A stretch of DNA of 64,000 bases from Collinsella aerofaciens. GTDB lineage: Bacteria; Actinomycetota; Coriobacteriia; Coriobacteriales; Coriobacteriaceae. The stretch covers positions 29,962-93,961 of the forward strand of contig DBGBCW010000015.1 of the NCBI GenBank assembly GCA_048478035.1. Direction: 5' to 3'. The position numbers were made by a program, and so were the translations under genes. Positions within the stretch are counted from its first letter, which is position 1. Every line of letters begins with the position of its first letter. Shown in pieces: positions 24,813 to 61,616 of this stretch. The notes beneath the pieces are model-generated. The model made no database searches. It was not told the origin of the DNA and saw only the letters and a program-made list of their open reading frames with translations.

Positions 24813-25370
24813 GTGACTATGACGTGCTCTTTGGTGGTTAACAGCAAGAGCGGTAATACCAGGATGGTTTCGGGTGCGATCAAGCGCGCTCTGCAGGCTG
24901 CGGGCGTTGAGTTTGTCCACGCTGCGGCGTTGAGCGACGATGCGGACGCAGATCAGGTTGCGCTCGAGGCGCAGGGCGCCTGCGCGGCCGACACGGTGCT
25001 CGTCGGTTTTTGGTGCGACAAGGGTGCGTGCACGCCTTCGGTCGCGGCGTTGCTCTCCGCCTTGCACGGCAAGCGCGTCTTCTTGTTTGGCACCTGCGGT
25101 TTTGGCGCCGACCAGAGCTATTACCAGCAGATTATCGACCGCGTGACCTCCAATTTGGCCAACGATGCCGAGCTTGCGGGCTGGGCGATGTGTCAGGGCA
25201 AGATGGGCCCCGCGGTCAAGCAGCGCTACGAGGCCATGCTCGAGCAAGATCCCGACAATGTCCGCTTTAAGATGCTGCTCGATAACTGGGTCGCTGCAAA
25301 GGATCACCCCACCAAGGAAGATCTGGACAACATGGCTGCAGCCGCCAAAAAGGCCGTGCTGGGGGAGTAG
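24813..25370 (+). CDS. Flavodoxin-like protein
   Basis: N-terminal flavodoxin-type phosphate-binding loop (LVVNSKSGNTRMV) and a conserved FGTCGFG segment. GTG 24813 with an upstream GAGG. Confidence 0.65.
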   Translation: MTMTCSLVVNSKSGNTRMVSGAIKRALQAAGVEFVHAAALSDDADADQVALEAQGACAADTVLVGFWCDKGACTPSVAALLSALHGKRVFLFGTCGFGADQSYYQQIIDRVTSNLANDAELAGWAMCQGKMGPAVKQRYEAMLEQDPDNVRFKMLLDNWVAAKDHPTKEDLDNMAAAAKKAVLGE

Positions 25371-25412
25371 CTCCCATCGCTGACGGCGGTCGGTCCATCT
25401 TTCTAAATGAAA

Positions 25413-25541
25413 CGTCCTCCCGGGCGTCGGGGCACGAAGTTCCCTGCTCTACAGTCCTGCGCAAGACGAAGGCCACATTAAGTGGCCTTCTTTGTGTGCG
25501 GAACTCGCGATGAACTTCGTGCCCCGCCGTCCGGGAGGACG
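25413..25541. repeat. P element copy 1: ~130-nt palindromic structured element
   Basis: 30-nt arms 25413-25442 and 25512-25541 pair at 28 of 30 positions. Central hairpin gaaggccacattaagtggccttc (25468-25490). Homologous to the inverted copy at 30789-30919. Confidence 0.7.
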
Positions 25542-25584
25542 CCTCTTTATTGATGGGAGGCCTGATAGGTCGATGGTTCCGTGC

Positions 25585-26049
25585 CCGGATGCGTCCAAAG
25601 TGGGACGGGCTTTCCGGATGGTCAGGCTTTCGAAAAATGCGTCCCGGAATTTGCCTTTGGAATGGGACGTAGTTTCCCGTTGAGGTGCTTTGCGGAAAGT
25701 GCATCCCACTCTGGGCGGTCGAAGTGGGACACACTTTCCCAAAGGCGCTCCAACGGGAAATTGCGTCCCATTATTCGGTCAAGAAACGGGATGCATTTTC
25801 CCAATGAGAGCAAAACCGGAAAATGCATCCCACAATCAGCCCTCAAAGTGGGACGCCGTTTCCCAATGAGGCTCAAGCGGAAAATGCATCCCGGAATTTG
25901 CGCTCAAAGTGGGATGCGGTTTCCGGTTGAGGGTCTAAGGGGAAAGTGCGTCCCAGAATCGACGCTTGAAATGGGATGCAGTTTCCCGATGAGGCACTCG
26001 ACGGAAAATACATCCCAGAAATGGCCTTTGAGCTGGGATAAGATTTCCG
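25585..26049. repeat. Array 1: BIME-like tandem array, 8 units, 62-nt period
   Basis: Arms tGGGAYRCNNTTTCCc start at 25601, 25663, 25725, 25787, 25849, 25910, 25972 and 26034. They alternate with inverse arms cGGAAANTGCRTCCC. Confidence 0.85.
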
Positions 26050-26135
26050 CGGCATCTCGGATTCTCAAAAATGAGACACGCCGTTGGCGAAAATGAGACA
26101 CGTGATATCGGGTATCGGATGTATCATTTGCAAAA

Positions 26136-29100
26136 ATGAGTCCACTCCACTCGAATAAAGCGAGGTCCCTCATGTACGTTCCACACCCCCGTATCCGTAG
26201 GCTGTCGAAAATCCCGCTTGTTGGGACGGCGGCGCTTGCTGCGTTGATCGCCACGAGCGTCGCCTGCTTCACGGCCACGCCCCAGGTTGCCCAGGCGGCA
26301 GACGCGCCCGCAATCACCGATATGACCGAGCAGGATTATCAAGCCCTGGGTCTGGGCACGAGCGAGGACATTCCGGCCGATACCATTGGCCCCTATTCCA
26401 CTGATACCCCCACGACGTTTGCCACGCGCAGCGAGGTCTATATGGCAGCTAACGGTAGCCATGGCAATCGCTACACTCTGCGCGACAAGCTCGAGAACGT
26501 CGAGCGCGGTGACATTGGCGGCAGCAGCAAACTCACCGATGGCTATGGAAGTGTGTGGGGCGCCGCAAAGTTCTGGCAAAACGTCAACAACTTCGATACG
26601 AACAGCGATCTCTACAAGCATAGCGACTACGGTGGCGGCACCTGGTCGTACCTAAGCAACAATGAGTCCTCAACAGTACTCGCCAACGACAACAACGGTT
26701 TCTCGGGCATTCACGCCACGAGTGTTGAGTTCTGCAGCGACGCCAGCACGGGCAAAAAGAGCCGCGTTGCCGAGCTCCGTGCCTACGGCGACAGTTCCTC
26801 CACGACGATTGACGGCAAGTCATACGCCGGAAAGGTTGAGCTGGTCCTCTACTCGTTTAGCAACGGGCGTACGCGCACTCTCGACACACACCTGCCGGTG
26901 ACGGTCAACACTAATATGATGTACGAAGGCCGTTTTAAGTACCTGGATGCCGGTTACCTGCAAGAGCACGACGCCGTCTTTGATGTCGAGGCGGGCGATG
27001 TCGATGGCGACGGCATCGACGAGCTTTTTGTCTACGCGGGCTGCTATGTCGACGAGAACGGCGTGCGCAAGGCTGTAGTCGACATGTATGACTTGGAGGG
27101 CGGCAACTGGAAGCAAAGCGTCGTCAAGATCGATGCCGGTAACGCCGTGGACTACACCACGCACAACAAGGGCGGGAACGACTCCTGGACGCAGCTTCAG
27201 TCAGCTCCTGTCGTTTCGCTAGCGGCCGGCGACCTCGATCGCGATTTTTGCGATGACCTCGCCATCGTGGTCTCGGCACCCTACGGCAAGAAGAATATTG
27301 ATAAGTCGACGCATTGCGAGCTGTTTTCGTGGGATGCATCCAAGGGTGCGCTCGTCCATGTCGATGCTCTGGGCGACGCGGGCGCAATCTCCCTCTCCGC
27401 GAACGGCAAGACCATGGTCGCTGCGAATGCGACGTTCGGCACGTTTGCCGCCTACGATGAAGAAGGAAAGAAGACGGGTGAAACCGTCACGGGCCTTATT
27501 CTTGCGGGCTATGACTGGCAACGCAGCGCTTTTGATTACGGCGCTTCTGACGGCAGCAAGGGGCTGTACGGCGCGCTGTACCGCTACGCGTATTTTGACT
27601 CGGAGTCTGGCGAGTTCAAGCTTTCCGATTGCAAGGAATACAGAGACGGGCTCCTCGCCTCCTATGGGCTGATGCATGTGCCCAACAGCGCATGGAAGGA
27701 TAGCGCTCAGGATAAGCGCTATCCGTGCACCTTGGCGCCTATTGCCCTTGCCACTGCCAACCTTGACGGCCTGTCCGAGCAGCTGGCGGTCGACGAGGTG
27801 CTCGTGGGCGGCGATGTGTTCCGCGACTTTGCCTGCAACACGGCACAGAGCGGGGCTCAGGGCTTGGGGTCCATGGTCGGAACCATGAGCATGAGCGGTC
27901 AGCAATACAACAGCAGCAACAAGCATGACCACAAGGGTATAGAGCAGGTGTGGATCAGCGACGTCAAAGCGGGCAGCGTCTCGGGTTCGGACCGCTATAA
28001 CGAGAGCTTTATCGCTGTGGTGGGCAAACACCGCGACGAGGACCTGCGCAAGAACGATGACTACTATTGGATGACCGCCTCGCATTTTTCGCTCGACGAG
28101 AACGGAAAGGTGCGCCGCGGCGAGGAGCAGGTGATTAGCGAGAGCAACCGTCGCGGCACTACCTACGGCACATTTATCTCGCTCGCGCTGCCCGATGTCG
28201 ACAACGACAGCGTCAAGATCACGTACAAGGATCGCTACAAGGTCTATACCAACCCGCGCGTGCTTGCCGTGCTGCAGGATGCGCCCTATGTTGAGGATCT
28301 GGAGCAGGCATACGGCTATCTGGTGTTGGGCGGCACGTCATACGGAGAGGAAAAGGGCACGGGGACATCCCAGGGCTATACCATTGGCGCCGAGTTGGGC
28401 GTTGCCGTCGAGGTGCAGACCGGTCCGCCCCTGGTCGCGATGAATGCTTCAGTCGATTTTGCCGCCGAGGGATGCTATGACTACCGGAGCGAGCGCACGG
28501 TCAGCGCAAGCGTAAGCTATGAGTCGCATGCCGGCGAGGGTGACAAGGCCGTGCTCTACACGATTCCGATGGTCTATTACGAGTATGAGATCGAAAATGA
28601 GGAAACTGGTGGCAAGGGCGTGATGGCGGCGCCCGTGTCGCTCGGCGCGCAGACCTCGGTCGTTAATGTCGAGGCCTATGACCGCATTGCCAAACAGCAC
28701 AATATGACGCCGCTCAGCTACTTTTTGACCAACCGGTCGGGAGAACCCGGAACCTATCAAACGACGCTCAACGGCGAGACTCCCGTTGGGGATTCCTTTG
28801 GCCTGGGCAAGCCTGGCGTAACGCGCGCCTACACGCACGATGGGTTTAACGGCGCCGCCGCGCAGTCGGGGGCGAGCATTGAGCAGACCATCGAAGTCGA
28901 AGAGGGCAAGGAGCAGGAGCTCGAGCTCGGCTTGACGCTGAACGGCAGCGTTGTCATGGGCGCGAAGCTCGCAAAGCACGAGTTGTTTGGCGGCCTGTGC
29001 TTTGGTGCCAACGCCGGCTTTACTACGGGTAACTCCTCGAGTGAATCGACCGAATACGGCGGCACCGTCGACAACCTGCCCGAGGCCGCGCAGGGCAAGT

Positions 29101-30260
29101 ACGGTTTTGTGTGGCGTCTGGGCGTCAACGCGGTGGATGTCGACAAGTTCGAGGCAGACTCGGGCGACAAGCTCGGCACCAAGGACACCGACCAGTTCTG
29201 GATCGTGGGCTATGACGTTAAGGACGTCGAGATGCCCGACGCGCCGGCCGTGACGGGCTTTACGGCAAACGCTGTTGATTCGACAAGCATTACCTTTAGC
29301 TGGGACGATGTGCTCTCAAAGAAGGACGGCTTTAGCTACGGCGTGGGCATGCTGCAGAGTAATGCAGCGGACGCGGTTGTGAACAGCTGGAAGATCGCCG
29401 ACAACACGCAGGCCTCGCTTAAGTGGGATGGGCTGTTGCCGAATACGGAGTATCGATTCGCCATCGCCGCCGTTAAGAATGATTCAACGGCCGAAACGGG
29501 TATTCGCTCGGCGATCATCACGGTCAAGACCATGCCCGATGGCATGACGATGACCGTGAGCGGACCTGCGGCGGATACAGCGGAGGGGTCGGATCTTGGA
29601 TACGACTCTTCGGTTGAGCGCGCGGCGGGAAGCTACCTGACGCTCTCGGCGATTGGCCATGTGAAGCAACTCGGTGCCGACGATAGCGAAACAGGGCTGG
29701 CACCGACCTATATGTGGTACCGCAAGGGCCGCGGCGAGACAGAGTTTAAGCTCGTGGGTGCCGATGGCAACCTCGCGGCTGGAACGGCCTCAAAGCTCGA
29801 GATTGACCTGACCGCAGACGATGACGGTGCGCAGTATTACTGCCACGTGGGATACAACGACGTGGGCCTCGACACCGGCACGACGCTCGTGAATATCGAG
29901 GCCGAGGAGACGGCGCCCACAACGGTGAACGCCACCCCGATCCGCACGCGCCGCCTGTTCTCACAGGCAAGTGCGGGCGCCAAGAAGTTCCTGGACCATA
30001 CGCTGGTAAACACCGCCGGCCCAACCGATTCCGAAGGCTCAAAGGACCCCGAGACTCCTGAGACCCCGACGAACCCGGACAAGCCCAAGTCCGACAACGG
30101 AGCTAAGACCGACACCAAGGTCAAGACTACGACCACAGCGAAGAACCTCGCAAACACCGGCGACCAAACATTCGCCCTAGTCGCCACCGCAGCAGCAGCG
30201 GGAGCAACGCTCGTAGTGATAGCCCTCATCATGCTGATCAAGCGCCGCAAGACCCACTAG
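26136..30260 (+). CDS. Large LAxTG-anchored surface protein with FG-GAP/VCBS-like repeats and an FN3-like domain
   Basis: Signal peptide (LVGTAALAALIATSVACFTATPQVAQA). Asp-rich repeats DVDGDGIDELFV and AAGDLDRDFCDDLAIV. FN3-like segment SITFSWDD...LPNTEYRFAIAAV. C-terminal LANTG, TM helix and KRRK. Alternative start is ATG 26172. Confidence 0.85.
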   Translation: MSPLHSNKARSLMYVPHPRIRRLSKIPLVGTAALAALIATSVACFTATPQVAQAADAPAITDMTEQDYQALGLGTSEDIPADTIGPYSTDTPTTFATRSEVYMAANGSHGNRYTLRDKLENVERGDIGGSSKLTDGYGSVWGAAKFWQNVNNFDTNSDLYKHSDYGGGTWSYLSNNESSTVLANDNNGFSGIHATSVEFCSDASTGKKSRVAELRAYGDSSSTTIDGKSYAGKVELVLYSFSNGRTRTLDTHLPVTVNTNMMYEGRFKYLDAGYLQEHDAVFDVEAGDVDGDGIDELFVYAGCYVDENGVRKAVVDMYDLEGGNWKQSVVKIDAGNAVDYTTHNKGGNDSWTQLQSAPVVSLAAGDLDRDFCDDLAIVVSAPYGKKNIDKSTHCELFSWDASKGALVHVDALGDAGAISLSANGKTMVAANATFGTFAAYDEEGKKTGETVTGLILAGYDWQRSAFDYGASDGSKGLYGALYRYAYFDSESGEFKLSDCKEYRDGLLASYGLMHVPNSAWKDSAQDKRYPCTLAPIALATANLDGLSEQLAVDEVLVGGDVFRDFACNTAQSGAQGLGSMVGTMSMSGQQYNSSNKHDHKGIEQVWISDVKAGSVSGSDRYNESFIAVVGKHRDEDLRKNDDYYWMTASHFSLDENGKVRRGEEQVISESNRRGTTYGTFISLALPDVDNDSVKITYKDRYKVYTNPRVLAVLQDAPYVEDLEQAYGYLVLGGTSYGEEKGTGTSQGYTIGAELGVAVEVQTGPPLVAMNASVDFAAEGCYDYRSERTVSASVSYESHAGEGDKAVLYTIPMVYYEYEIENEETGGKGVMAAPVSLGAQTSVVNVEAYDRIAKQHNMTPLSYFLTNRSGEPGTYQTTLNGETPVGDSFGLGKPGVTRAYTHDGFNGAAAQSGASIEQTIEVEEGKEQELELGLTLNGSVVMGAKLAKHELFGGLCFGANAGFTTGNSSSESTEYGGTVDNLPEAAQGKYGFVWRLGVNAVDVDKFEADSGDKLGTKDTDQFWIVGYDVKDVEMPDAPAVTGFTANAVDSTSITFSWDDVLSKKDGFSYGVGMLQSNAADAVVNSWKIADNTQASLKWDGLLPNTEYRFAIAAVKNDSTAETGIRSAIITVKTMPDGMTMTVSGPAADTAEGSDLGYDSSVERAAGSYLTLSAIGHVKQLGADDSETGLAPTYMWYRKGRGETEFKLVGADGNLAAGTASKLEIDLTADDDGAQYYCHVGYNDVGLDTGTTLVNIEAEETAPTTVNATPIRTRRLFSQASAGAKKFLDHTLVNTAGPTDSEGSKDPETPETPTNPDKPKSDNGAKTDTKVKTTTTAKNLANTGDQTFALVATAAAAGATLVVIALIMLIKRRKTH

Positions 30261-30290
30261 TAGCCAGTCGAACATATCGACAACCCAAAA

Positions 30291-30330
30291 ACCCGGGTAG
30301 CCAAAAAACAGGCCACCCGGGTTTTCTGTT
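30291..30330 (+). terminator. Rho-independent terminator of the surface-protein gene
   Basis: acccgggtagcc / ggccacccgggt stem followed by tttctgtt. Confidence 0.8.
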
Positions 30331-30348
30331 GAGTGGAGACTCCGCAAG

Positions 30349-30703
30349 CGGAAACTGCATCCCGCAATTAGCGCCCGGAACGGGACACATTTTCCGTCAA
30401 GCCCTCATCCGGAAAATCCATCCCAGTTTGAGCGCCCAGACCGGGACGCACTTTCCCAAAGGGTTCTCAACGGGAAACTGCGTCCCATAATTAGGCCGAG
30501 AAATGGGATGAACTTTCCCAATGAGAGCCAACCGGAAACCACGTCCCAGAATCAGCCCCCAAAGTGGGACGCACTTTCCCAACGAGCCTCAACCGGAAAA
30601 TACATCCCGGAATCCAGCTGAATAGTGGGACACACTTTCCCAATCGGGTCCCAAGCGGAAACTGCATCCCATTCCAGACAAGAATTCTGGGACACGGTTT
30701 CCG
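30349..30703. repeat. Array 2: BIME-like tandem array, 6 units, 61-62-nt period
   Basis: R arms start at 30381, 30442, 30504, 30565, 30626 and 30688. L arms start at 30349, 30410, 30472, 30533, 30594 and 30656. Same consensus as array 1. Confidence 0.85.
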
Positions 30704-30788
30704 GATGCAAAAAGGCCACATGACGTGGCCTTCAACTTATATATGTTCAGCAGATGTCCCCATGACAAGCCGCGTTTCAACACTGAGG

Positions 30789-30919
30789 CGTCTGCCCGGC
30801 GACGCGGAACGTAAGGTTCATCGCGAGTTCCGCACGAGCCGGAGAGCACTTAATGTGCTCTCCGTGCGAGCAGGACTGTCCGAGCAGGGAACCTTACGTT
30901 CCGCGCCGCCGGGCAGACG
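30789..30919. repeat. P element copy 2, inverted relative to copy 1
   Basis: 31-nt arms 30789-30819 and 30889-30919 pair at 30 of 31 positions. Central hairpin ggagagcacttaatgtgctctcc (30841-30863). Shares gtgcggaactcgcgatgaac with copy 1 on the opposite strand. Confidence 0.7.
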
Positions 30920-30938
30920 AACCAGTTAAGACGCGCCG

Positions 30939-33239
30939 CTACTTGATCTTGGTCGTACCCGGCGCCAAGTTGGGGTCGGTCTCGTTGGCCTCGGTCTGGA
31001 AGTGCTCGGTGTACACGTTCTTGCCGTCGCGGAACATCTCGTAGTACTGCATCTTGGCGTAATCCTCGCGCGCCTTGGTGGCGGCTGCGGCTTCGGCGTC
31101 GTCACCGGTGACGTTGGAGGAGAGCGCCCAACGCAGGCTGGCGTCCTCGTAGCCCACGGAGTTGATAGCGGGCAGCGACTCGCGCAGCGTCACGTGCGCT
31201 TTCTGGTAGTCGGTCAGCGGTGCGCCGATCAGCTGCATCAGCTGCGTGGACAGGTAGTTGGTGGACAGGTCGTCGACCTCGCTTGTCTGGTCGCAGCCGG
31301 CAACGTCGTAGTTGGCCCAGATGATGTAGTCGGTCTGCCACAGACGTTCCTGGTGCGTGGCGTCGTCTTCGCCGGTAAACCACTTGTCGTTGAACTTGGA
31401 CGGGAAGAACGGCTGGTGGTCGCCCCAGAACACCACGACTACCTTACGGTCGAGCTTGCTCAGGGCGTTTAGGAAGTAGCGAAGCGCCTGGTCGGACTGC
31501 TCGATGCACGAGACATACTCGTCGACATCGGAGAGCGTGCCGTCCTCGACGGTCTTGGCATCCAGATCGGTCGTGTCGATATTCAGGTGCATCTGCTTAT
31601 CGACCGGCAGCAGACCCGTATCGTAGCCCGAGTGGTTCTGCATGGTCACGTCGAAGATAAACTGCGGATCGGCGTTCTGGTCGAGCAGCTCAAGAATCTT
31701 GTCGTAGGTAGCCTGGTCGGTCACCATGCCGCGCAAGGTGTCGGCTCCCTGGAAATCGTTGATGGACAGGAACTGGTCAAAGCCAAAGTCCTTGTAGACG
31801 TTCTCGCGGTTCCAGTTGGTTGCGTGATTGGGGTGCATAGCCGTGGTGGAATAGCCGAGCGATTTGAACTGCTCTGCCAGGTTCCCGGTCGTTTCCATGT
31901 TGTAGATGGTGTAGGGGTACACGCCCGAGCCGAGGTTGGCCATGGAGTTGCCGGTCATAAACTCAAACTCGGTATTGGCGGTGCCGCCGCCGTAGGCGCT
32001 CACGTAGAGCTTGCCGCGGCTGAGGCAGTTGGACAGGCTCTTAAAGTACTGCGGGCCCTCGTAGCCGGCGCGCATGTTCTGATAGATCGACAGATCCGAG
32101 AAGGTCTCGTTCATGATGGCGATGACCGTGGGCTTCTCGCTGTCGAACTGCTCCTTTGCGGCGGTGCGCTCGTCACTCTTGGCTGCGTCGGACTTGTCGT
32201 AGGTCTTGGCGTACTTTTTGAGCGTGGCCTTGGCATCGTCGACGGAGTAGTCGGCGGGTTTGGGCGGCTTGATGGACTGCGCTGCACTAATAAAGGCGGG
32301 CAGGTAGCCCTCGCGCCAGTAGCTCTCGAGCGGGCGCCAGGTATAGACGGTGATGCCGAGGGTGTTGTAGTAGTCGATGAGCGTGACGTGCGCGGTCACG
32401 CCGCCCAGGCACAGCACGGCGACGAGCAGATTGGTGAGCAGCATGCGCTTGGCGTTGGCGGCGCCCTTCTGACGGTGCGGTGCCACCAGGCCGGCGTACT
32501 CGCACAGCAGCATAGCGATGGCGGTAAAGCCCATGGACAGCACGCAGAACAGCGAGATGGAGAAGGTGTAGCCGGTGCCGGCGACCGCGGCGGCGGTGGA
32601 GATGGCCGAAAGGTCGCCCGGCTGGATGGGCATGGATTTAAACGTGATGACGAAGAACTCGGCAATGCCCAGGACAAAGAGGGCAAAGGCCAGGACCGCG
32701 GGAGCTGCGCCGTGGCGCTGGAACAGGAAGAACAGGCCGACCATGAGCGTGGTGATGATGGCCCACTCGAGCAGGATGCACAGGGGGTAGACCCAGGTAA
32801 AGTCGTGGTTGGACGAGACCTCCATGCCCAGCAGCGCAAAGACGCCGGCGAGCAGCAGGCACAGGACGGCGGCGACGAGCGGTTTGCCCACAAAGGCGCC
32901 GCGCAAACGAGCGAGCTTGCCGGTGGGGGTGGGCGCATCGGCCGAGGCGAACGCAAAGACGCGCGGGGCGATGCGGTCGCGGGCGATACTGGCCCAAGCG
33001 CAGCCGGTGAGGATGGCGTTGGTCAGGATGAGCATCACAAAGGCGAGCGGCTCGTTTTGGGCGACGAGGCCAATGGCGCCCCAAATGGTCAAAAAGAGCT
33101 GGAACAGGCCGAAGGCGACGCTCCACCCAAGAGCGCTTTTGGCAACGGTGCCCGACTGAGCGCGAATGGTCTTGGCCTCGCGCAAAACAAGGTAGACGGT
33201 CGCCGCAAGACCGACGAGCGAGATGGCGGCAGCGAACAT
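30939..33239 (-). CDS. LTA synthase family protein (multi-TM N-terminus plus extracellular sulfatase-type domain)
   Basis: About 9 TM helices, then a sulfatase/LtaS-like core (VIAIMNETFSDL, GGGTANTEFEFMTGNS, TAMHPNHATNWNR, MQNHSGY). GAGGAG RBS before ATG 33239. Confidence 0.85.
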   Translation of the reverse strand: MFAAAISLVGLAATVYLVLREAKTIRAQSGTVAKSALGWSVAFGLFQLFLTIWGAIGLVAQNEPLAFVMLILTNAILTGCAWASIARDRIAPRVFAFASADAPTPTGKLARLRGAFVGKPLVAAVLCLLLAGVFALLGMEVSSNHDFTWVYPLCILLEWAIITTLMVGLFFLFQRHGAAPAVLAFALFVLGIAEFFVITFKSMPIQPGDLSAISTAAAVAGTGYTFSISLFCVLSMGFTAIAMLLCEYAGLVAPHRQKGAANAKRMLLTNLLVAVLCLGGVTAHVTLIDYYNTLGITVYTWRPLESYWREGYLPAFISAAQSIKPPKPADYSVDDAKATLKKYAKTYDKSDAAKSDERTAAKEQFDSEKPTVIAIMNETFSDLSIYQNMRAGYEGPQYFKSLSNCLSRGKLYVSAYGGGTANTEFEFMTGNSMANLGSGVYPYTIYNMETTGNLAEQFKSLGYSTTAMHPNHATNWNRENVYKDFGFDQFLSINDFQGADTLRGMVTDQATYDKILELLDQNADPQFIFDVTMQNHSGYDTGLLPVDKQMHLNIDTTDLDAKTVEDGTLSDVDEYVSCIEQSDQALRYFLNALSKLDRKVVVVFWGDHQPFFPSKFNDKWFTGEDDATHQERLWQTDYIIWANYDVAGCDQTSEVDDLSTNYLSTQLMQLIGAPLTDYQKAHVTLRESLPAINSVGYEDASLRWALSSNVTGDDAEAAAATKAREDYAKMQYYEMFRDGKNVYTEHFQTEANETDPNLAPGTTKIK

Positions 33240-55216: not shown

Positions 55217-56308
55217 TTAGCGATCCTCGCGTTGCGGCCCGGCCGCCTCGGCTGTCTTTACGCGGTTCTTATCGACGTACATGTTCTTGTCGGCCTGGGA
55301 AAAGAGTTCGCGCATGGTAGGCGGCTCGTCAAAATCACTGGAAAGCGCATAGCCCACCGCATAGCTGATAGGCATGTCGGGGTGAGCCTCGGAATACTCG
55401 TTCACGTTCGCACGAACCCGAGCGAGACAGGACTCCACGGCAACTCGATCGGCATCCCACAGCACCGCGATAAACTCATCGCCGCCGTCGCGGCCCACAA
55501 AGCAGGCCTCGGACGCCACGCGCCCCAGCTGCTGGGCAAAAGAACGGATGTATTCGTCACCCTTCTCGTGGCCAAAGGTGTTATTGACCGTATGCAGGTT
55601 GTTAAGATCGAAGACGCACACCACAACGGGCGCCTCCGCGGAGACAGGCTGCTCCTGCCCCAAGACCTCCTCGCACTTGTTCTTGTTGGGCAGTCCTGTG
55701 GCTTCGTCGAGATAGACTTTGCTCTGCAGTTCGCGATTGAGCGCGGCAGTTCGCACCGCGCGAACAAGTTCGACCGCAAAGGTCGCCACCAAGCCCACGA
55801 TGTCGATGATCACCAAGCCCTCGAGATAGTTGAGCGCCGACGCCTTCTCCTGAGAGTAGTCCTCTGCGAGTCGTGTGGCATCGTCACAAATACCAAAGAA
55901 CTCCTCGCTCATCGCGATGATATCGGTGTTCTCGTAGCCGACTTCGCACACGCGGGCAATCTCGGCGCGAAGCTCGTCAAAATAGTTCGCGAGTTCGGTC
56001 ATCTTTGCCTGGTACTCATCGTCATCGAGACGGACGAGATTGAGGTCGTCACTTCCGTAACGCAAACCGTTGATGTATGAATCCACGGCTTTGAGCAGGT
56101 CATCTTGAGGCTGGCCCGCATCCTCGAGCTTAACGATTCGCTGCGTGGTACCGCGCACCAGACCGGCGTAGTTGACCACACGCGCCGTGCCCTGGATATC
56201 GGAGACGAGCAGCATAACATTGATGAAGAAGAAGATGAGAACTGCCGTGAGCACCATCATGAGCAGGCGCACCGCCTGGCCGGCCTTCTTGGCGACAGAA
56301 GTATTCAC
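55217..56308 (-). CDS. Diguanylate cyclase (GGDEF) with an N-terminal membrane-flanked PilJ/NarX-like sensor domain
   Basis: TM helix, YAGLVRGTTQRIVKL sensor-type motif, second TM helix, then a GGDEF domain (LPNKNK..., GHEKGDEYI, GRDGGDEFIAV). GTG start with an AGGGGAG RBS. Confidence 0.85.
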   Translation of the reverse strand: MNTSVAKKAGQAVRLLMMVLTAVLIFFFINVMLLVSDIQGTARVVNYAGLVRGTTQRIVKLEDAGQPQDDLLKAVDSYINGLRYGSDDLNLVRLDDDEYQAKMTELANYFDELRAEIARVCEVGYENTDIIAMSEEFFGICDDATRLAEDYSQEKASALNYLEGLVIIDIVGLVATFAVELVRAVRTAALNRELQSKVYLDEATGLPNKNKCEEVLGQEQPVSAEAPVVVCVFDLNNLHTVNNTFGHEKGDEYIRSFAQQLGRVASEACFVGRDGGDEFIAVLWDADRVAVESCLARVRANVNEYSEAHPDMPISYAVGYALSSDFDEPPTMRELFSQADKNMYVDKNRVKTAEAAGPQREDR

Positions 56309-56498
56309 AAGTTCACTCCCCTAAATGACAAAAGAACAGGTAGCACGCAGTGTGCTGAAATTCATGGGTGGTTAACTCTACCATATGGGCCAGCAGCCTC
56401 AAACTGCAGCAGACGCTCGTCCAAATTGGCGTGACGCTTGCCTTGTTGTTCTTGACCTGGCCGCGCTATCGGACATGCTTCTGGTCTTGGATCACCAT

Positions 56499-56670
56499 GG
56501 GAAAGCTCATCCCGTTTTGTGCGTCTAGAGTGGGATGCGGCTTCCCAAAGGTGCCGTTAGGGGAAACCACATCCCGGTTTATGCCCTTGAAATGGGATGC
56601 CGTTTCCCGGAGGGGGCCCAGCGGGAAACGGCATCCCATTTTGGGCCCGAAAAGTGGGATACGGTTTCCG
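56499..56670. repeat. Array 3: BIME-like tandem array, 3 units, 62-nt period
   Basis: R arms start at 56531, 56593 and 56655. L arms start at 56499, 56561 and 56623. The unit at 56593-56637 is a perfect 15-bp inverted pair. Confidence 0.8.
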
Positions 56671-56682
56671 GCCGGCATGAAT

Positions 56683-56717
56683 AAAGCCTCCGCAGCTCGT
56701 GTGGCTGCGGAGGCTTT
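56683..56717 (-). terminator. Rho-independent terminator of ABC operon 3
   Basis: aaagcctccgcagc / gctgcggaggcttt perfect 14-bp stem. U-rich tail on the minus strand (tttattcat). Confidence 0.75.
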
Positions 56718-56841
56718 ATTCGTTGCGGCGCATTGTGTTTGGGTCGTTGAGATGAGTCGATTTGCCCCGAAAGAGGAGGGCATTGACCTTAGGGTCATGC
56801 CCGACGAATGAGCGGCAAATCGGCCATCTCGGCGAGCCGAA

Positions 56842-58761
56842 CTACTCCAGCTCAAACGCCCCGGTATAGAGCTGATAGTAGTATCCGCGCTTGGCGATCA
56901 GCTCGTCGTGGTTGCCACGCTCGATAATGCGGCCGTGGTCCAGGCAGATGATCGCGTCGGAGTTGCGCACGGTGGACAGGCGGTGCGCGATGACAAACGT
57001 CGTGCGGCCCTCCATGAGCTTATCCATGCCCGCCTGCACGATGGCCTCGGTGCGGGTGTCAATGGAGCTCGTGGCCTCGTCCAGGATCATTGCCGGCGGA
57101 TCGGCGACGGCAGCACGTGCGATCGAAATCAGCTGGCGCTGGCCCTGCGACAGCTGCGCGCCGTTGCCGGTGAGCATCGTGTCGTAGCCGTCGGGCAGGC
57201 GGGTGATAAAGTCGTCGGCGCCCGCGAGCTTGGCTGCCGCGATGCACTCCTCGTCGGTGGCGTCCAGGTTGCCGTAGCGGATGTTGTCCATCACGGTGCC
57301 GGTGAACAGGTTCACGTCCTGCAGTACGACGCCCAGCGAGCGGCGCAGATCGGCCTTGCGGATCTTGTTGACGTTGATGCCGTCGTAGCGGATCTTGCCG
57401 TCGGCGATGTCGTAGAAGCGGTTGATGAGGTTGGTGATGGTCGTCTTGCCCGCACCGGTGGCGCCGACAAACGCGACCTTCTGGCCCGGCTTGGCAAACA
57501 CGGACACGCCGTGCAGCACCTCGTGGTCGGGCGTGTAGCCAAAGTCGACGTTGTCCATGACCAGGTCGCCGCGCAGCGGTACGTACTCGATCTCGCCGGT
57601 TGCGCGGTGCGGGTGTTTCCATGCCCACATGCCGGTGTGGTGGTCGGCCTCCTCGAACTCCCAAGTCTCGGGGTTCACCTGCGCGTTGACGAGCGTCACG
57701 TAGCCTTCGTCGGTCTCGGGCTTCTCGTCGATGAGCTCAAAGATGCGGTCGGCGCCGGCGAGGCCCATGACCACGGCGTTGATCTGCTGCGAGATCTGAC
57801 CGATCTGTCCGCAGAACTGCTTGGTCATGTTGAGGAACGGCACCACGACGGCGATGGACAGCGTCATGCCCGAGATGCTCAGGTTGGGCACGCCCAGCGC
57901 CAGGAAAATGCCGCCGGCAAGGGCCACCAACACGTAGAGCAGGTTGCCCAGGTTCATAAGGATAGGCATGAGGATGTTGGCGTACATGTTGGCCTTCTGC
58001 GAGACCTCGAAGAGCTTTTCGTTGCGCTCGTCAAAATCGGCCTCGGCGGCAGACTCGTGGCAGAATGCCTTGACGACCTTCTGGCCGTTCATGACTTCCT
58101 CGATATGGCCCTCGACCACGCCGAGCTCGGACTGCTGCGCAATAAAGAAACGCGCAGAGTTGGAGCCGAGCAGCTTGGTCATAAAGGTCATAAAGACGAC
58201 GCCGGCCACAATGACCAGGCACATCCACACGCTGTAGTACAGCATGATAAAGAATACCGTGACGATGACGATGGTCGTCATGAGCAGGTTGGGCAGCGAC
58301 TGGCTGATCATCTGGCGCAGCGTGTCGATGTCGTTGGTGTAGTGGCTCATGATGTCGCCGCGCTGGTGCGTGTCGAAGTAGCGAATCGGCAGGTCCTGCA
58401 TGCGGTTGAACATCTTCTCGCGCAGCTTCTCGAGCGAGCCCTGCGTGACGATGGCCATGGCGCGGTTCCAGAAGAGCGAAGACAGGATGCCGACGCCGTA
58501 GATGCAGGCGAGGGTAGTCACGAGCTGTGCGATCTTGGGCTGTGCGGCTTCCCAATCGCCCGACTGCCACGATTCGCTAATAATCTGCAGGGCGCTCTGA
58601 AGGAAGGTCGCGCCGATGGAGTTGATGATGGCGCAGAGCACCACGCCGACGACGACGAGGGGCAAAAGCACGGGGTAGAAGCCAAAGAGCGTCTTGATGA
58701 GGCGCGACATGGTGCCGCCCTTGCGGTTGAGCGCGCGCTCGGCGGTCGTTGCCTTACTCAT
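56842..58761 (-). CDS. ABC exporter, fused permease/ATPase half-transporter (pair 3, subunit B)
   Basis: Start ATG 58761 overlaps the upstream stop (ATGAGTAA). Walker A GATGAGKTT, signature LSQGQRQL, Walker B MILDEATSSID. Confidence 0.9.
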   Translation of the reverse strand: MSKATTAERALNRKGGTMSRLIKTLFGFYPVLLPLVVVGVVLCAIINSIGATFLQSALQIISESWQSGDWEAAQPKIAQLVTTLACIYGVGILSSLFWNRAMAIVTQGSLEKLREKMFNRMQDLPIRYFDTHQRGDIMSHYTNDIDTLRQMISQSLPNLLMTTIVIVTVFFIMLYYSVWMCLVIVAGVVFMTFMTKLLGSNSARFFIAQQSELGVVEGHIEEVMNGQKVVKAFCHESAAEADFDERNEKLFEVSQKANMYANILMPILMNLGNLLYVLVALAGGIFLALGVPNLSISGMTLSIAVVVPFLNMTKQFCGQIGQISQQINAVVMGLAGADRIFELIDEKPETDEGYVTLVNAQVNPETWEFEEADHHTGMWAWKHPHRATGEIEYVPLRGDLVMDNVDFGYTPDHEVLHGVSVFAKPGQKVAFVGATGAGKTTITNLINRFYDIADGKIRYDGINVNKIRKADLRRSLGVVLQDVNLFTGTVMDNIRYGNLDATDEECIAAAKLAGADDFITRLPDGYDTMLTGNGAQLSQGQRQLISIARAAVADPPAMILDEATSSIDTRTEAIVQAGMDKLMEGRTTFVIAHRLSTVRNSDAIICLDHGRIIERGNHDELIAKRGYYYQLYTGAFELE

Positions 58762-60568
58762 GTGCCTCGCCTCCTTCCTGGGTCTGAGCCTGCGTTGCGG
58801 ATGCCTCGGTGTCGGCCTCGACGGCCCCTTCGCCCTCGGCAGACATCTTGTTTTGCGAGGTAAAGGTCTCGCGGTAGATCTCGCTCGTCTTAAGCAGCTC
58901 GTCATGGTTGCCGATCTGCGCGATACGGCCGCCCTCCATGACGATGATGCGGTCTGCATCCTGTACGGAGCTAATGCGCTGGGCGATGATGAGCTTGGTC
59001 GTGTTGGGCAGATAGCTTGCCAACCCTGCGCGAATCTTGGCGTCGGTCTTGGTGTCGACGGCGCTAGTGGAGTCGTCCAGGATCAAGATCTTGGGGCGAC
59101 GCAGCAGGGCACGCGCAATGCACAGGCGCTGCTTCTGACCGCCGGAAACATTGGAGCCGCCCTGCTCGATCCAGGTGTCGTAACCCTTGGGGAAGCCGTC
59201 GACAAACTCATCGGCGCAGGCCAGATGTGCCGCCTCGCGGACTTCCTCGTCGGTGGCGTTCGGGTCGCCCCAGCGCAGGTTCTCGGCGATGGTGCCGCTA
59301 AACAGCACGTTTTTCTGTAGTACCATGGCCACTTGGTGACGCAGTGCGTCCAGGTCGTAGTCGCGCACGTCCATGCCGCCCACGCGCACGGTGCCTTCGG
59401 TGGCGTCGTACAGGCGGGCGATGAGGTTTACGAGCGTGGACTTGGCCGAGCCGGTGCCGCCGATGATGCCGATGGTCTCGCCGCTCTTAATGTGCAGGTC
59501 GATATCGTCGAGCGCCTGGCGCTTCGCATGCGCGGAATACTTAAAGCTCACGTGGTCAAAGTCGATGGAGCCGTCGGCAACCTCGAGCACGGGCTCGGCG
59601 GGATCGGCGATCGTGGGCTCGGCGGCCAGCACCTCGGTAATGCGGTGCGCCGATTCGTCGGCCATGGTCACCATGACAAAGATCATCGACAGCTGCATCA
59701 GGCTCATGAGGATCTGAAAACCGTAGGTAAAGATCGAGGAGAGCTGGCCCACGTCGAACAGCGTGCCCTGGCTCGTGATGATGAGCTTGGAGCCCAGGTA
59801 GATGATGACGACAAACGCGCCGTTGACGCAGATGTTCATCATGGGGTTGTTAAAGGCGAGCAGCTTCTCGGCGCGGGTGAAGTCCATCTGGACGTCGCGT
59901 GCGGCGGTCGCGAACTTCTCCTTCTCAAAGTCTTCGCGCACATAGCTCTTGACCACGCGCATGCCGGTGACGTTTTCCTCGACGGACTCGTTAAGGGCGT
60001 CGTACTTGTGGAACACGCGCGAGAAGATGGGGCGCACCTTAAAGATGATAAAGAACAGTCCAAAGCCCAGTAGCGGAATGATGGCCAGGTAGACCATGGC
60101 GACGCTGCCGCCCATGATAAACGCCATGGTAAAGGCGAAGATCAATACCAGCGGCGCGCGCACGGCGATACGGATAATCATCATAAAGGCCTGCTGAACG
60201 TTGTTGATGTCGGTGGTCAGGCGCGTGACGAGCGAGGAGCTCGAGAACTCATCGATGTTGGCAAAGCTGAACGTCTGGATCTTGTAGAACAGGTCGTGAC
60301 GCAGGTTCTTGGCGAAGCCGCAACTCGCATGGCTGCAGGTGACGCCGGCAGCGGCGCCAAAAGCAAGCGACGTAAGCGCGATGAGCACCAAAAAGCCCGC
60401 GGTGGGAAGCATCTCGGCTACGGTGGCACCGTCTTTGATGGCGTCGATTAGGTTGGCGGTGATAAATGGAATCAGCATCTCGCAGAGCACCTCGCCAAGC
60501 ACGAGCAACGGCGTGGCAACGGTGACTTTCATATAGTCGCGGATGCTTCCCATGAGGGTTTTAATCAT
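58754..60568 (-). CDS. ABC exporter, fused permease/ATPase half-transporter (pair 3, subunit A)
   Basis: GGGAGG RBS. Walker A GGTGSAKST, signature VSGGQKQR, Walker B ILILDDSTSAVD. The start overlaps the MarR stop (ATGATTAA). Confidence 0.9.
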   Translation of the reverse strand: MIKTLMGSIRDYMKVTVATPLLVLGEVLCEMLIPFITANLIDAIKDGATVAEMLPTAGFLVLIALTSLAFGAAAGVTCSHASCGFAKNLRHDLFYKIQTFSFANIDEFSSSSLVTRLTTDINNVQQAFMMIIRIAVRAPLVLIFAFTMAFIMGGSVAMVYLAIIPLLGFGLFFIIFKVRPIFSRVFHKYDALNESVEENVTGMRVVKSYVREDFEKEKFATAARDVQMDFTRAEKLLAFNNPMMNICVNGAFVVIIYLGSKLIITSQGTLFDVGQLSSIFTYGFQILMSLMQLSMIFVMVTMADESAHRITEVLAAEPTIADPAEPVLEVADGSIDFDHVSFKYSAHAKRQALDDIDLHIKSGETIGIIGGTGSAKSTLVNLIARLYDATEGTVRVGGMDVRDYDLDALRHQVAMVLQKNVLFSGTIAENLRWGDPNATDEEVREAAHLACADEFVDGFPKGYDTWIEQGGSNVSGGQKQRLCIARALLRRPKILILDDSTSAVDTKTDAKIRAGLASYLPNTTKLIIAQRISSVQDADRIIVMEGGRIAQIGNHDELLKTSEIYRETFTSQNKMSAEGEGAVEADTEASATQAQTQEGGEAHE

Positions 60569-61168: not shown

Positions 61169-61331
61169 GTTACGGCGTTTTGCCAAACGCCGTAACCGCT
61201 CGACGCTGCAAACCCGCCAGAGCGGCAATCTGCCTTTCAACTTCGGCGGCATGACCAGAAGGTCAATGCCACCTTGTTTCAAGGCACCTTGCTCGCTCTG
61301 GCGGGTTTTCGCTGACTTCGCCAAAACATCG
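61169..61331. repeat. Q element copy 2
   Basis: 12-bp hairpin gttacggcgttt-tgcc-aaacgccgtaac, then the same block order as 19033-19192. Confidence 0.6.
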
Positions 61332-61343
61332 GCGTTGTCCGAC

Positions 61344-61464
61344 TAGTCGTTTTGGCACTTGGGGACACTCCTTGTGCTGATAGTCGTTGGGGACGTTCTT
61401 GTTTGCCTAGTCATTTAAGAACGTCCCCAACGACTAACTTAAGAACGTCCCCAACGACTAACTT
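61344..61464. repeat. Nested palindrome built from four copies of a 20-mer (two forward, two reverse)
   Basis: tagtcgttggggacgttctt (61381-61400) pairs perfectly with aagaacgtccccaacgacta (61417-61436). A perfect tandem 24-mer lies at 61417-61440 and 61441-61464. A disrupted forward copy lies at 61344-61373. Confidence 0.8.
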
Positions 61465-61616
61465 AAAACTATGCCGGATTACGGGGCTGAACGACGGATT
61501 GCCGACCATGCCGAAATTGGTAAAAAGAAAACCGCAGGTAGAAGGCTCGCTATGATTTGAAAATAGGGGGTGTGGTTGGCTCATTCAGGTTCAGCCCCGT
61601 AATCCGGCATAGTTTT
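61465..61616. repeat. Perfect 28-bp inverted repeats flanking a 96-bp AT-richer core (MITE or inverton candidate)
   Basis: aaaactatgccggattacggggctgaac (61465-61492) is the exact reverse complement of 61589-61616. Confidence 0.85.

Follow-up and report, generated by a model that had tools for sequence, protein, structure and literature searches.

We found that a 64-kb stretch of Collinsella aerofaciens DNA (contig DBGBCW010000015.1 of GenBank assembly GCA_048478035.1; hereafter the window) contains three intergenic arrays of a 61-62-bp unit built of short inverted arms. They belong to a repeat family that is real and that, in its layout, is an analogue in an actinobacterium of the bacterial interspersed mosaic elements (BIMEs). 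We put at about even the chance that this non-coding family of the Collinsella lineage, which resembles BIMEs and the repetitive extragenic palindromes (REPs) that compose them, acts as a phased duplex-DNA platform for a sequence-specific protein. The host, which a preliminary description made from the letters of the window had taken for a high-GC Gram-positive bacterium, is indeed one: Collinsella (Actinomycetota) is an abundant and very diverse human gut actinobacterium.

Array 1 (25590-26050) consists of a half unit and seven full 62-bp units with 15 arms, eight in the '+' and seven in the '-' orientation, array 2 (30344-30707) of six units with 12 arms, and array 3 (56495-56671) of three units with six arms; none of the arrays is assigned a strand. 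The arm is 14 nt long (GGGAYRNNNTTTCC) and alternates in orientation with a 61-62-nt period, which is also detected by Tandem Repeats Finder (TRF). In an arm scan of both strands, the arms span 25602-26048 (15), 30350-30702 (12) and 56500-56669 (6). The '+' arms of array 1, all matching GGGAYRNNNTTTCC with 0 mismatches, start at 25602, 25664, 25726, 25788, 25850, 25911, 25973 and 26035, and its '-' arms start from 25632 to 26003; the scan agrees with the arm coordinates and spacings of the preliminary description and with its count of 17 '+' arms in 64 kb. Outside the three clusters, a regular-expression scan for GGGAYRNNNTTTCC on both strands of the 64 kb gave no convincing copy. A looser arm pattern gave 20 matches, compared to 3.5 ± 1.8 in shuffled sequences, and 0 of 100 shuffles reached 20. 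A profile hidden Markov model built only from the units of other genomes (nhmmer) returned exactly these three arrays and no further match in 64 kb at E ≤ 10, so that both the recurrence of the family at two further sites of the window and the boundaries of the units hold in a search that did not use the window itself.

The anatomy of the unit was derived from 129 arrays. The 61-62-bp unit comprises a 46-bp quasi-palindrome, in which an arm GGAAAnnnYRTCCC, an asymmetric 18-bp core and an arm GGGAYRnnnTTTCC follow each other, and a 15-16-bp linker. A '-' arm and the '+' arm that follows it are 32 nt apart in 379 of 383 cases, and a '+' arm and the following '-' arm are 30 nt (257 cases) or 29 nt (53) apart. 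The core, linker L1, is 18 nt long and strongly asymmetric, with the consensus ~gGAATnnnnGCTCAgAaT, 14 bits of information and an orientation callable in 94% of copies, whereas the other linker, L2 (15-16 nt, ~TTGAGnnCTCAA), is weaker and quasi-palindromic. An earlier picture of a ~31-nt module alternating in orientation is thus right about the alternation of the arms and wrong about a simple flipped unit. Arrays mostly start with (c/g)GGAAA and mostly end with TTTCC(g/c), which makes a 46-bp palindrome centred on L1, recurring every 62 bp, the natural unit. Successive L1 copies are co-oriented in 144 of 197 cases; L1 flips inside arrays, often close to their ends, and the orientation of L2 is independent of that of L1. 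Solitary arms are no commoner than chance (28, against roughly 50 expected by our own estimate), and only 13 of ~710 within-array steps from arm to arm are spaced as if an arm had been missed.

Across 90 distinct 76-nt units, conservation is complete or reaches at least 90% in the GGAAA, TCCC, GGGA and TTTCC columns, while the rest is variable. Pairwise identity is 53% among 213 distinct L1 sequences, 45% for L2 and 73% for the arms, the last figure being raised by the pattern that defines them; the length of L1 is nevertheless exactly 18 nt in 379 of 382 copies. Such divergence with almost no change in length therefore indicates selection on the blocks and on their spacing. The block centres within a unit lie ~9.5, 22, 9.5 and 21 bp apart, close to 1, 2, 1 and 2 helical turns, and these coordinates would place all four conserved blocks on one face of B-DNA.

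The arrays fold far better than shuffled sequences on both strands (z ~-11 as RNA and ~-5 as DNA), because the invariant blocks are complementary. At the variable arm positions, Watson-Crick pairing equals the expectation, with no excess: when pairs are counted for L1-centred and L2-centred hairpins, the real units are equalled or surpassed by 496-500 of 500 shuffles. The positive control, a long hairpin beside arrays 1 and 2, displays compensatory change in 19 of 48 pairs over nine copies. Selection for a hairpin was rejected, as neither the L1-centred nor the L2-centred form exceeds shuffled pairing, and maintenance of the array as the chain of alternative hairpins that had been envisaged is not supported; hairpins are possible, but not selected.

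Besides the window, the family is found in many related genomes. A scan of species-representative genomes with one palindromic unit as query (GGAAANNNYRTCCC-N18-GGGAYRNNNTTTCC) gave at least 120 loci, and arrays are present in 120 of the 120 matches listed. These stem from ~110 species-level assemblies (counted by accession prefix), nearly all titled Collinsella or Coriobacteriaceae; in the few compared bins titled 'uncultured bacterium' or 'Ruminococcus' the genes are 97-99% identical to those of the window. The loci listed, cited below by their L numbers, represent at least ~59 distinct gene-pair sites, so that copies in relatives are plentiful. A BLAST search of the 72,556 plasmid records of PLSDB returned a single match, a 900-kb record (NZ_OY725717.1, locus L123) labelled 'plasmid 6' of C. 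aerofaciens TSDC17.2-1.1. The record carries rpoB, rpoC, tuf, ribosomal-protein operons, recA and ftsK, and because rpoBC, tuf and the ribosomal-protein genes are present, it is a fragment of the chromosome and not a plasmid. The consensus array has ~9 BLAST places in it, and its first 150 kb, dense in core operons, are array-free; extrapolated, the copy number would be modest, at tens of arrays per genome. In IMG/VR, only two contigs match, both of which align to a Collinsella chromosomal site. A phage or plasmid origin was dropped, the IMG/VR contigs being chromosomal and the sole PLSDB match a mislabelled chromosome. Among the matches listed, the family appears to be chromosomal and essentially Collinsella-specific.

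As anticipated, the arrays match no REP, BOX, ERIC or CRISPR repeat. Rfam is likewise negative: at the gathering threshold it reports only the SRP RNA and a tRNA in the window, and at E ≤ 10 in 25300-31000 only chance miRNA-like hairpin matches and no Collinsella-named motif. The suggestion that such arrays had not been described also stands, since we found no description of Collinsella repeats in the literature and a sequence search of 200 of the 408 supplementary files of a study of human-microbiome structured RNAs (PMC8040213) gave no match.

We observe that each of the window arrays lies beyond a terminator-like hairpin of a gene reading toward it. Array 1 follows the terminator of a flavodoxin gene and precedes the 5' region of a surface-protein gene, array 2 separates the terminators of two convergent genes, and array 3 is flanked by the upstream region of a GGDEF gene (minus strand, 55217-56308) on one side and by the 3' hairpin of an ABC-transporter gene (minus strand, 56842-58959) on the other. 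Upstream of array 1, a terminator scan found a terminator-like hairpin with a T-rich tail (GAAGGCCAC/GTGGCCTTC; 25468-25490, plus strand), which would end the flavodoxin transcription unit. Upstream of array 2, the terminator-like hairpin of the surface-protein gene (AAACCCGGGTAGCC...GGCCACCCGGGTTTT, tail TTCTGTT; 30288-30329, plus strand) has a bulge and was hence missed by the simple scan; it is found in five orthologous loci (L002, L018, L037, L041, L042), at -24.0 kcal/mol (RNAfold). The right end of array 2 is abutted by the terminator-like hairpin of a convergent 771-aa gene (AAGGCCAC-GTCAT-GTGGCCTT; 30703-30732, minus strand), with the minus-strand tail TTTGCAT and an orthologue at -14.1 kcal/mol (RNAfold; L006, right-hand gap).

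When the sites are grouped by the direction of the flanking genes, 51 arrays lie in convergent, 39 in tandem and 6 in divergent spacers, as opposed to 47, 246 and 96 array-free spacers of the same loci, a convergent enrichment and divergent depletion with a chi-square of 83 (p = 8e-19, from counts that include orthologous loci). At tandem sites, array polarity is unrelated to gene direction (12 same, 14 opposite). The neighbouring genes are also functionally unrelated, including xanthine-dehydrogenase-like and patatin-like genes, a PTS (phosphotransferase system) component, an MmeI-type restriction-modification gene, orphan ATPases and surface proteins. The terminators, the convergent bias, the random polarity and the unrelated neighbours together speak for a DNA-level element and not a strand-specific RNA element. 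This context argues for array spacers that are weakly transcribed or untranscribed. A role in mRNA 3'-end stabilisation, for which the preliminary description had proposed to look, is not supported, given the position of the arrays beyond terminator-like hairpins and a polarity unrelated to gene direction.

In genomes with 97-99% identical proteins, orthologous arrays are nearly identical unit by unit, and array 1 is kept in this way in L037, L092 and L083. The comparison of unit counts that had been recommended reveals differences of whole units: one to four units have been cleanly deleted from orthologous arrays (L042, L041, L002, L075, L065), with the junctions falling inside arms or linkers, the orthologues of array 2 have 4, 8, 10 or 12 arms, and arm counts per site are 4/8/8/8/10/12 at one site and 11/11/19 at another. 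Among the orthologous sites compared, we found no linker flip and no pair of an empty and a filled site. Because unit deletions are the only changes of this kind, without flips or empty/filled pairs, the arrays behave as old, vertically inherited minisatellite-like loci and not as active transposons, and units are lost or gained whole through inter-unit recombination. Active linker inversion was rejected, as the orthologous arrays are without flips. In arrays 1 and 2 compared with L037, L092, L083, L029 and L042, several of the few substitutions replace CG by CA or TG at the arm's YR dinucleotide (GACGC becoming GATGC or GACAC), as would be expected from deamination of methylated cytosine.

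The gene between arrays 1 and 2 (26172-30260, plus strand; 4.1 kb) encodes a sortase-anchored surface protein, as had been supposed, with a signal peptide, a LANTGD sorting signal followed by a membrane anchor, and fn3 and weak FG-GAP matches in Pfam. Its longest open reading frame (ORF) starts at 26136, and the signal peptide starts with the ATG at 26172, for which there is a GAGG ribosome-binding site; an exact-protein look-up gave no record. Between array 1 and the gene start, at 26061-26140, there are three direct repeats (A)AAAATGAG(A/T)C(A/C)C, conserved in L037, which may be operator or promoter elements of the gene. Arrays 1 and 2 are paralogous and colinear: nine linkers are 65% identical between them, a score about twice the best one among unrelated arrays. 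Only some related genomes possess the gene, and in some of those that lack it the same flanking genes enclose a single hybrid array. In L046, which lacks the surface-protein gene, the hybrid consists of linkers 1-6 of array 1 and linkers 10-11 of array 2, and six of these eight linkers match the window with 100% identity. In L006, linkers 1-2 of array 1 are joined to linkers 10-11 of array 2, an older equivalent of the L046 event. The hybrid arrays and the loss of the gene are explained by recombination between arrays 1 and 2, which is expected to give such a product; this shows gene loss by recombination between flanking arrays. Such loss could be either a function of the arrays or a by-product of them.

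Other genomes carry different cargo beside the same core gene and array, for example other LPXTG-type proteins. In L067 (27-3443), L112 (547-4071) and L090 (6091-7983), arrays alternate with single accessory genes: an array is followed by an ATPase_2/DUF234 gene, a second array, a 332-aa gene without a Pfam match and a third array. This block adjoins a conserved xanthine-dehydrogenase-like gene and is reminiscent in its layout of gene cassettes, but its arrays are not paralogous to each other. The idea that flanking arrays are generally mutual duplicates was rejected, as the similarity is moderate for arrays 1 and 2 and is not seen at the c195 locus.

Two further repeat elements were observed in the neighbourhood of the arrays. 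The positive-control hairpin mentioned above belongs to a second family of ~135-150 nt, located in the window at 25400-25552 (minus strand) and 30785-30924 (plus strand) and present also in L006, L018, L037, L038, L065, L073, L086 and L095. Its inner boxes TTCATCGCGAGTTCCGCAC ... GCAGGACTGTnnGAGCAGGGAAC are invariant, and the compensatory changes fall in its outer stem and terminal hairpin. The genes that flank arrays 1 and 2 carry it at their 3' end, and its inner hairpin resembles their terminator; without a match in Rfam, the family is a candidate structured 3' element of Collinsella that would be new. A third motif, (TAGTCG)TTGGGGACGTTCYTT(AA), has four copies at 61330-61466 of the window, two direct and two inverted, which include a perfect 24-nt tandem repeat, and it is also found in L022 (1979-2020), L071, L080, L101, L103 and L104. 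In ~1 Mb of Collinsella DNA, 13 of its 18 copies are within 400 nt of an array, compared to 10.5% of the sequence, typically 40-76 nt from the array end, although several of these loci may be orthologous.

Taken together, the blocks of sequence and their helical phasing are conserved and base pairing is not, a clean case that points to a protein-DNA platform. We propose that the arrays act on double-stranded DNA, where they would present a phased series of sites to a sequence-specific DNA-binding protein. The bound protein might handle supercoiling or insulate neighbouring transcription units; this is a guess, and a gyrase-like or insulating role is suggested only by the analogy of BIME-2 and DNA gyrase. 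The family probably reached its many loci by a transposition-like step that is no longer visible, and recombinational loss of array-flanked genes would be a side effect. Several observations weigh against this proposal. Of 125 gaps that separate a stop codon from an array, 73 (58%) contain a strong hairpin with a T-rich tail, as do 55% of control gaps, in a crude test that scored the control gaps on both strands. Many loci are orthologous, which makes the context counts non-independent and inflated, with ~59 distinct sites behind them, and the definition of arms by a pattern with at most one mismatch inflates their apparent conservation. We infer protein binding from conservation and geometry only. 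Lastly, the strong single-strand folding and the presence of both linker orientations within arrays may reflect a single-strand phase, the linker flips being traces expected of occasional hairpin or cruciform events.

That last point leads to the most direct competitor of the duplex platform, which we regard as possible but unlikely: the units would be selfish or domesticated mobile hairpins of the REPIN/REP type, in which a Y1 (RAYT or IS200/IS605-type) or other transposase cuts and pastes the single-stranded 46-nt palindrome, the arm blocks are its recognition sequence and arrays grow by local duplication. The BIME-like layout, the strong folding potential of single strands, the loop-type flips of linkers within arrays and a bias to gene 3' ends like that of REPs are all in line with this, the sharp array ends (c/g)GGAAA...TTTCC(g/c) resemble element termini, and dispersal to at least ~59 sites needs some means of spread. 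However, Escherichia coli RayT (from NC_000913), searched by tblastn against 1.11 Mb of Collinsella DNA that comprised the 120 loci, a part of the C. aerofaciens record and the window, gave no match resembling RayT or IS200, nor did IS608 TnpA, a weaker probe. In PLSDB, the RayT query matched 41 records at E ≤ 10 and detected Y1 transposases in several distant phyla, and the 900-kb C. aerofaciens record was not among them. The conserved GTAG is absent from the unit consensus and the array flanks, with GTGG present only where AAGT closes the L1 core; beyond GGRA...TYCC, the 14-nt arm lacks self-complementarity, so that only pairs of arms make palindromes; and the stem is without covariation. 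The ends of an IS30-family element in L123, the only insertion-sequence (IS) ends compared, are unrelated to the arms. Orthologous arrays are static except for unit deletions, and no site was seen both empty and filled. As for a miniature transposon of the MITE type, the arms could act as 14-bp terminal inverted repeats of the 46-bp unit, and no target duplication is evident in 79 flank pairs. The REP/RAYT mechanism implied by the preliminary description finds no counterpart in the DNA examined.

A neutral, functionless minisatellite, whose conserved blocks result from recent amplification or gene conversion, is improbable. It would account for a unit number that differs between genomes, for the low density of arrays (~9 places in 900 kb) and for the fact that no associated gene or phenotype is known, but not for linkers that are only ~45-53% identical while arm blocks and the 18-nt length of L1 are kept, because neutral decay or recent amplification should affect lengths, linkers and arms equally; the strong context bias also speaks against it. 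We consider it very improbable that the arrays are transcribed and act as RNA, through mRNA 3'-end stabilisation, termination or a small RNA sequestering an RNA-binding protein. Their very negative folding z-scores on both strands, their position downstream of genes and the GGA-containing motifs in every arm would suit such a role, whereas the lack of covariation, in which they differ from the adjacent structured element, the random polarity, the terminator-like hairpins between genes and arrays (on both sides of array 2), the chance nature of the Rfam matches and the lack of any consistent promoter-like site do not. Finally, a coding repeat or a CRISPR-like array has next to no probability, despite the regular spacing and the ORFs of 121-171 aa that run through each array (25581-26096, 30564-30929, 56368-56811). 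As had been argued for array 1, the period of 61-62 nt is not a multiple of 3, and the GC content at third codon positions (GC3) of these ORFs is low at 0.55-0.65; for ORFs such as 25581-26096 it is 0.55-0.56, below the 0.75-0.87 of neighbouring genes. A coding repeat was refuted by these frame and composition data, and a CRISPR array was rejected because the arms alternate, the would-be spacers are 15-18-nt linkers semi-conserved across loci of the family, and nine array-adjacent proteins searched against Pfam have no cas domain. Annotators should be warned of these ORFs, which are artefacts and which a gene caller could enter as hypothetical proteins; in the one annotated public record examined, the 900-kb record, the array at 560.4 kb is without annotation.

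These observations have practical consequences. Since unit number varies by whole units among close genomes, the arrays are a ready marker for strain typing, and their recombination offers a concrete route for the loss of a sortase-anchored surface-protein gene, which bears on surface variation among gut strains. A more far-reaching version of the platform is distinctly unlikely in our view: a putative dedicated Collinsella binder would use the arrays chromosome-wide, as phased platforms in the untranscribed DNA that separates transcription units, to insulate or buffer genes topologically, and the portable homology of the arrays would drive loss and exchange of accessory cassettes, namely surface proteins, restriction-modification genes and orphan ATPases. 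If true, this would make the arrays chromosomal organisers of a new kind, found in a major gut actinobacterium, and more than another REP family.

Arrays of interspersed palindromic repeats are best known from Proteobacteria. The closest in geometry is E. coli BIME-2, which consists of clusters of REPs, also termed palindromic units (PU), that alternate in orientation with S and s linkers. Like the Collinsella arrays, BIME-2 is extragenic and dispersed, its inverted units alternate with two linker types in strain-variable tandem arrays of up to ~10 units, and it favours gene 3' ends and convergent pairs; the likeness to BIMEs proposed at the outset thus holds for inverted arms, two linker types, tandem arrays and variable unit number. 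BIME-2 has been reported as a site of DNA gyrase, which fits a DNA-level reading of the Collinsella arrays. E. coli REPs, in contrast, are self-palindromes of ~35 nt with a conserved GTAG and a cognate RayT gene and are mostly transcribed in 3' untranslated regions, whereas the Collinsella arrays have 14-nt arms that are not self-palindromic, a strict 61-62-bp period, conservation of 4-5-bp blocks only, no GTAG, no RayT in the DNA sampled, a position beyond terminator-like hairpins and an actinobacterial host.

The STAR elements of Staphylococcus aureus are intergenic, with a regular short motif, variable spacers and a copy number that varies between strains. They share with the Collinsella arrays a short conserved motif at a regular interval in intergenic DNA, but their motifs are direct repeats, unlike the alternating inverted arms, and are unrelated in sequence and from a different host phylum. 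Plasmid centromere and iteron arrays, such as F sopC with its 12 units of 43 bp that each contain an inverted repeat, are similarly phased, with fixed spacing and only a short protein-binding inverted repeat conserved. They are, however, single loci beside par or rep genes, while the Collinsella arrays occupy tens of chromosomal loci beside neither; a partition-centromere or iteron array was rejected because, in spite of the phasing, the many chromosomal loci lie beside metabolic, transport, surface-protein and restriction-modification genes. REPINs with their RAYTs, in Pseudomonas and others, consist of two short inverted repeats around a spacer (PMC3116915, PMC3337134). A REPIN population comprises a master sequence and near-identical copies of it, together with a RAYT that is present once and flanked (PMC3116915, PMC3337134), whereas the Collinsella units are strongly diverged outside the short blocks and no RAYT was detected in the DNA sampled; what the two have in common is the plan of the unit, two inverted repeats with a spacer, their occurrence as single or clustered units, their vertical inheritance and their long persistence.

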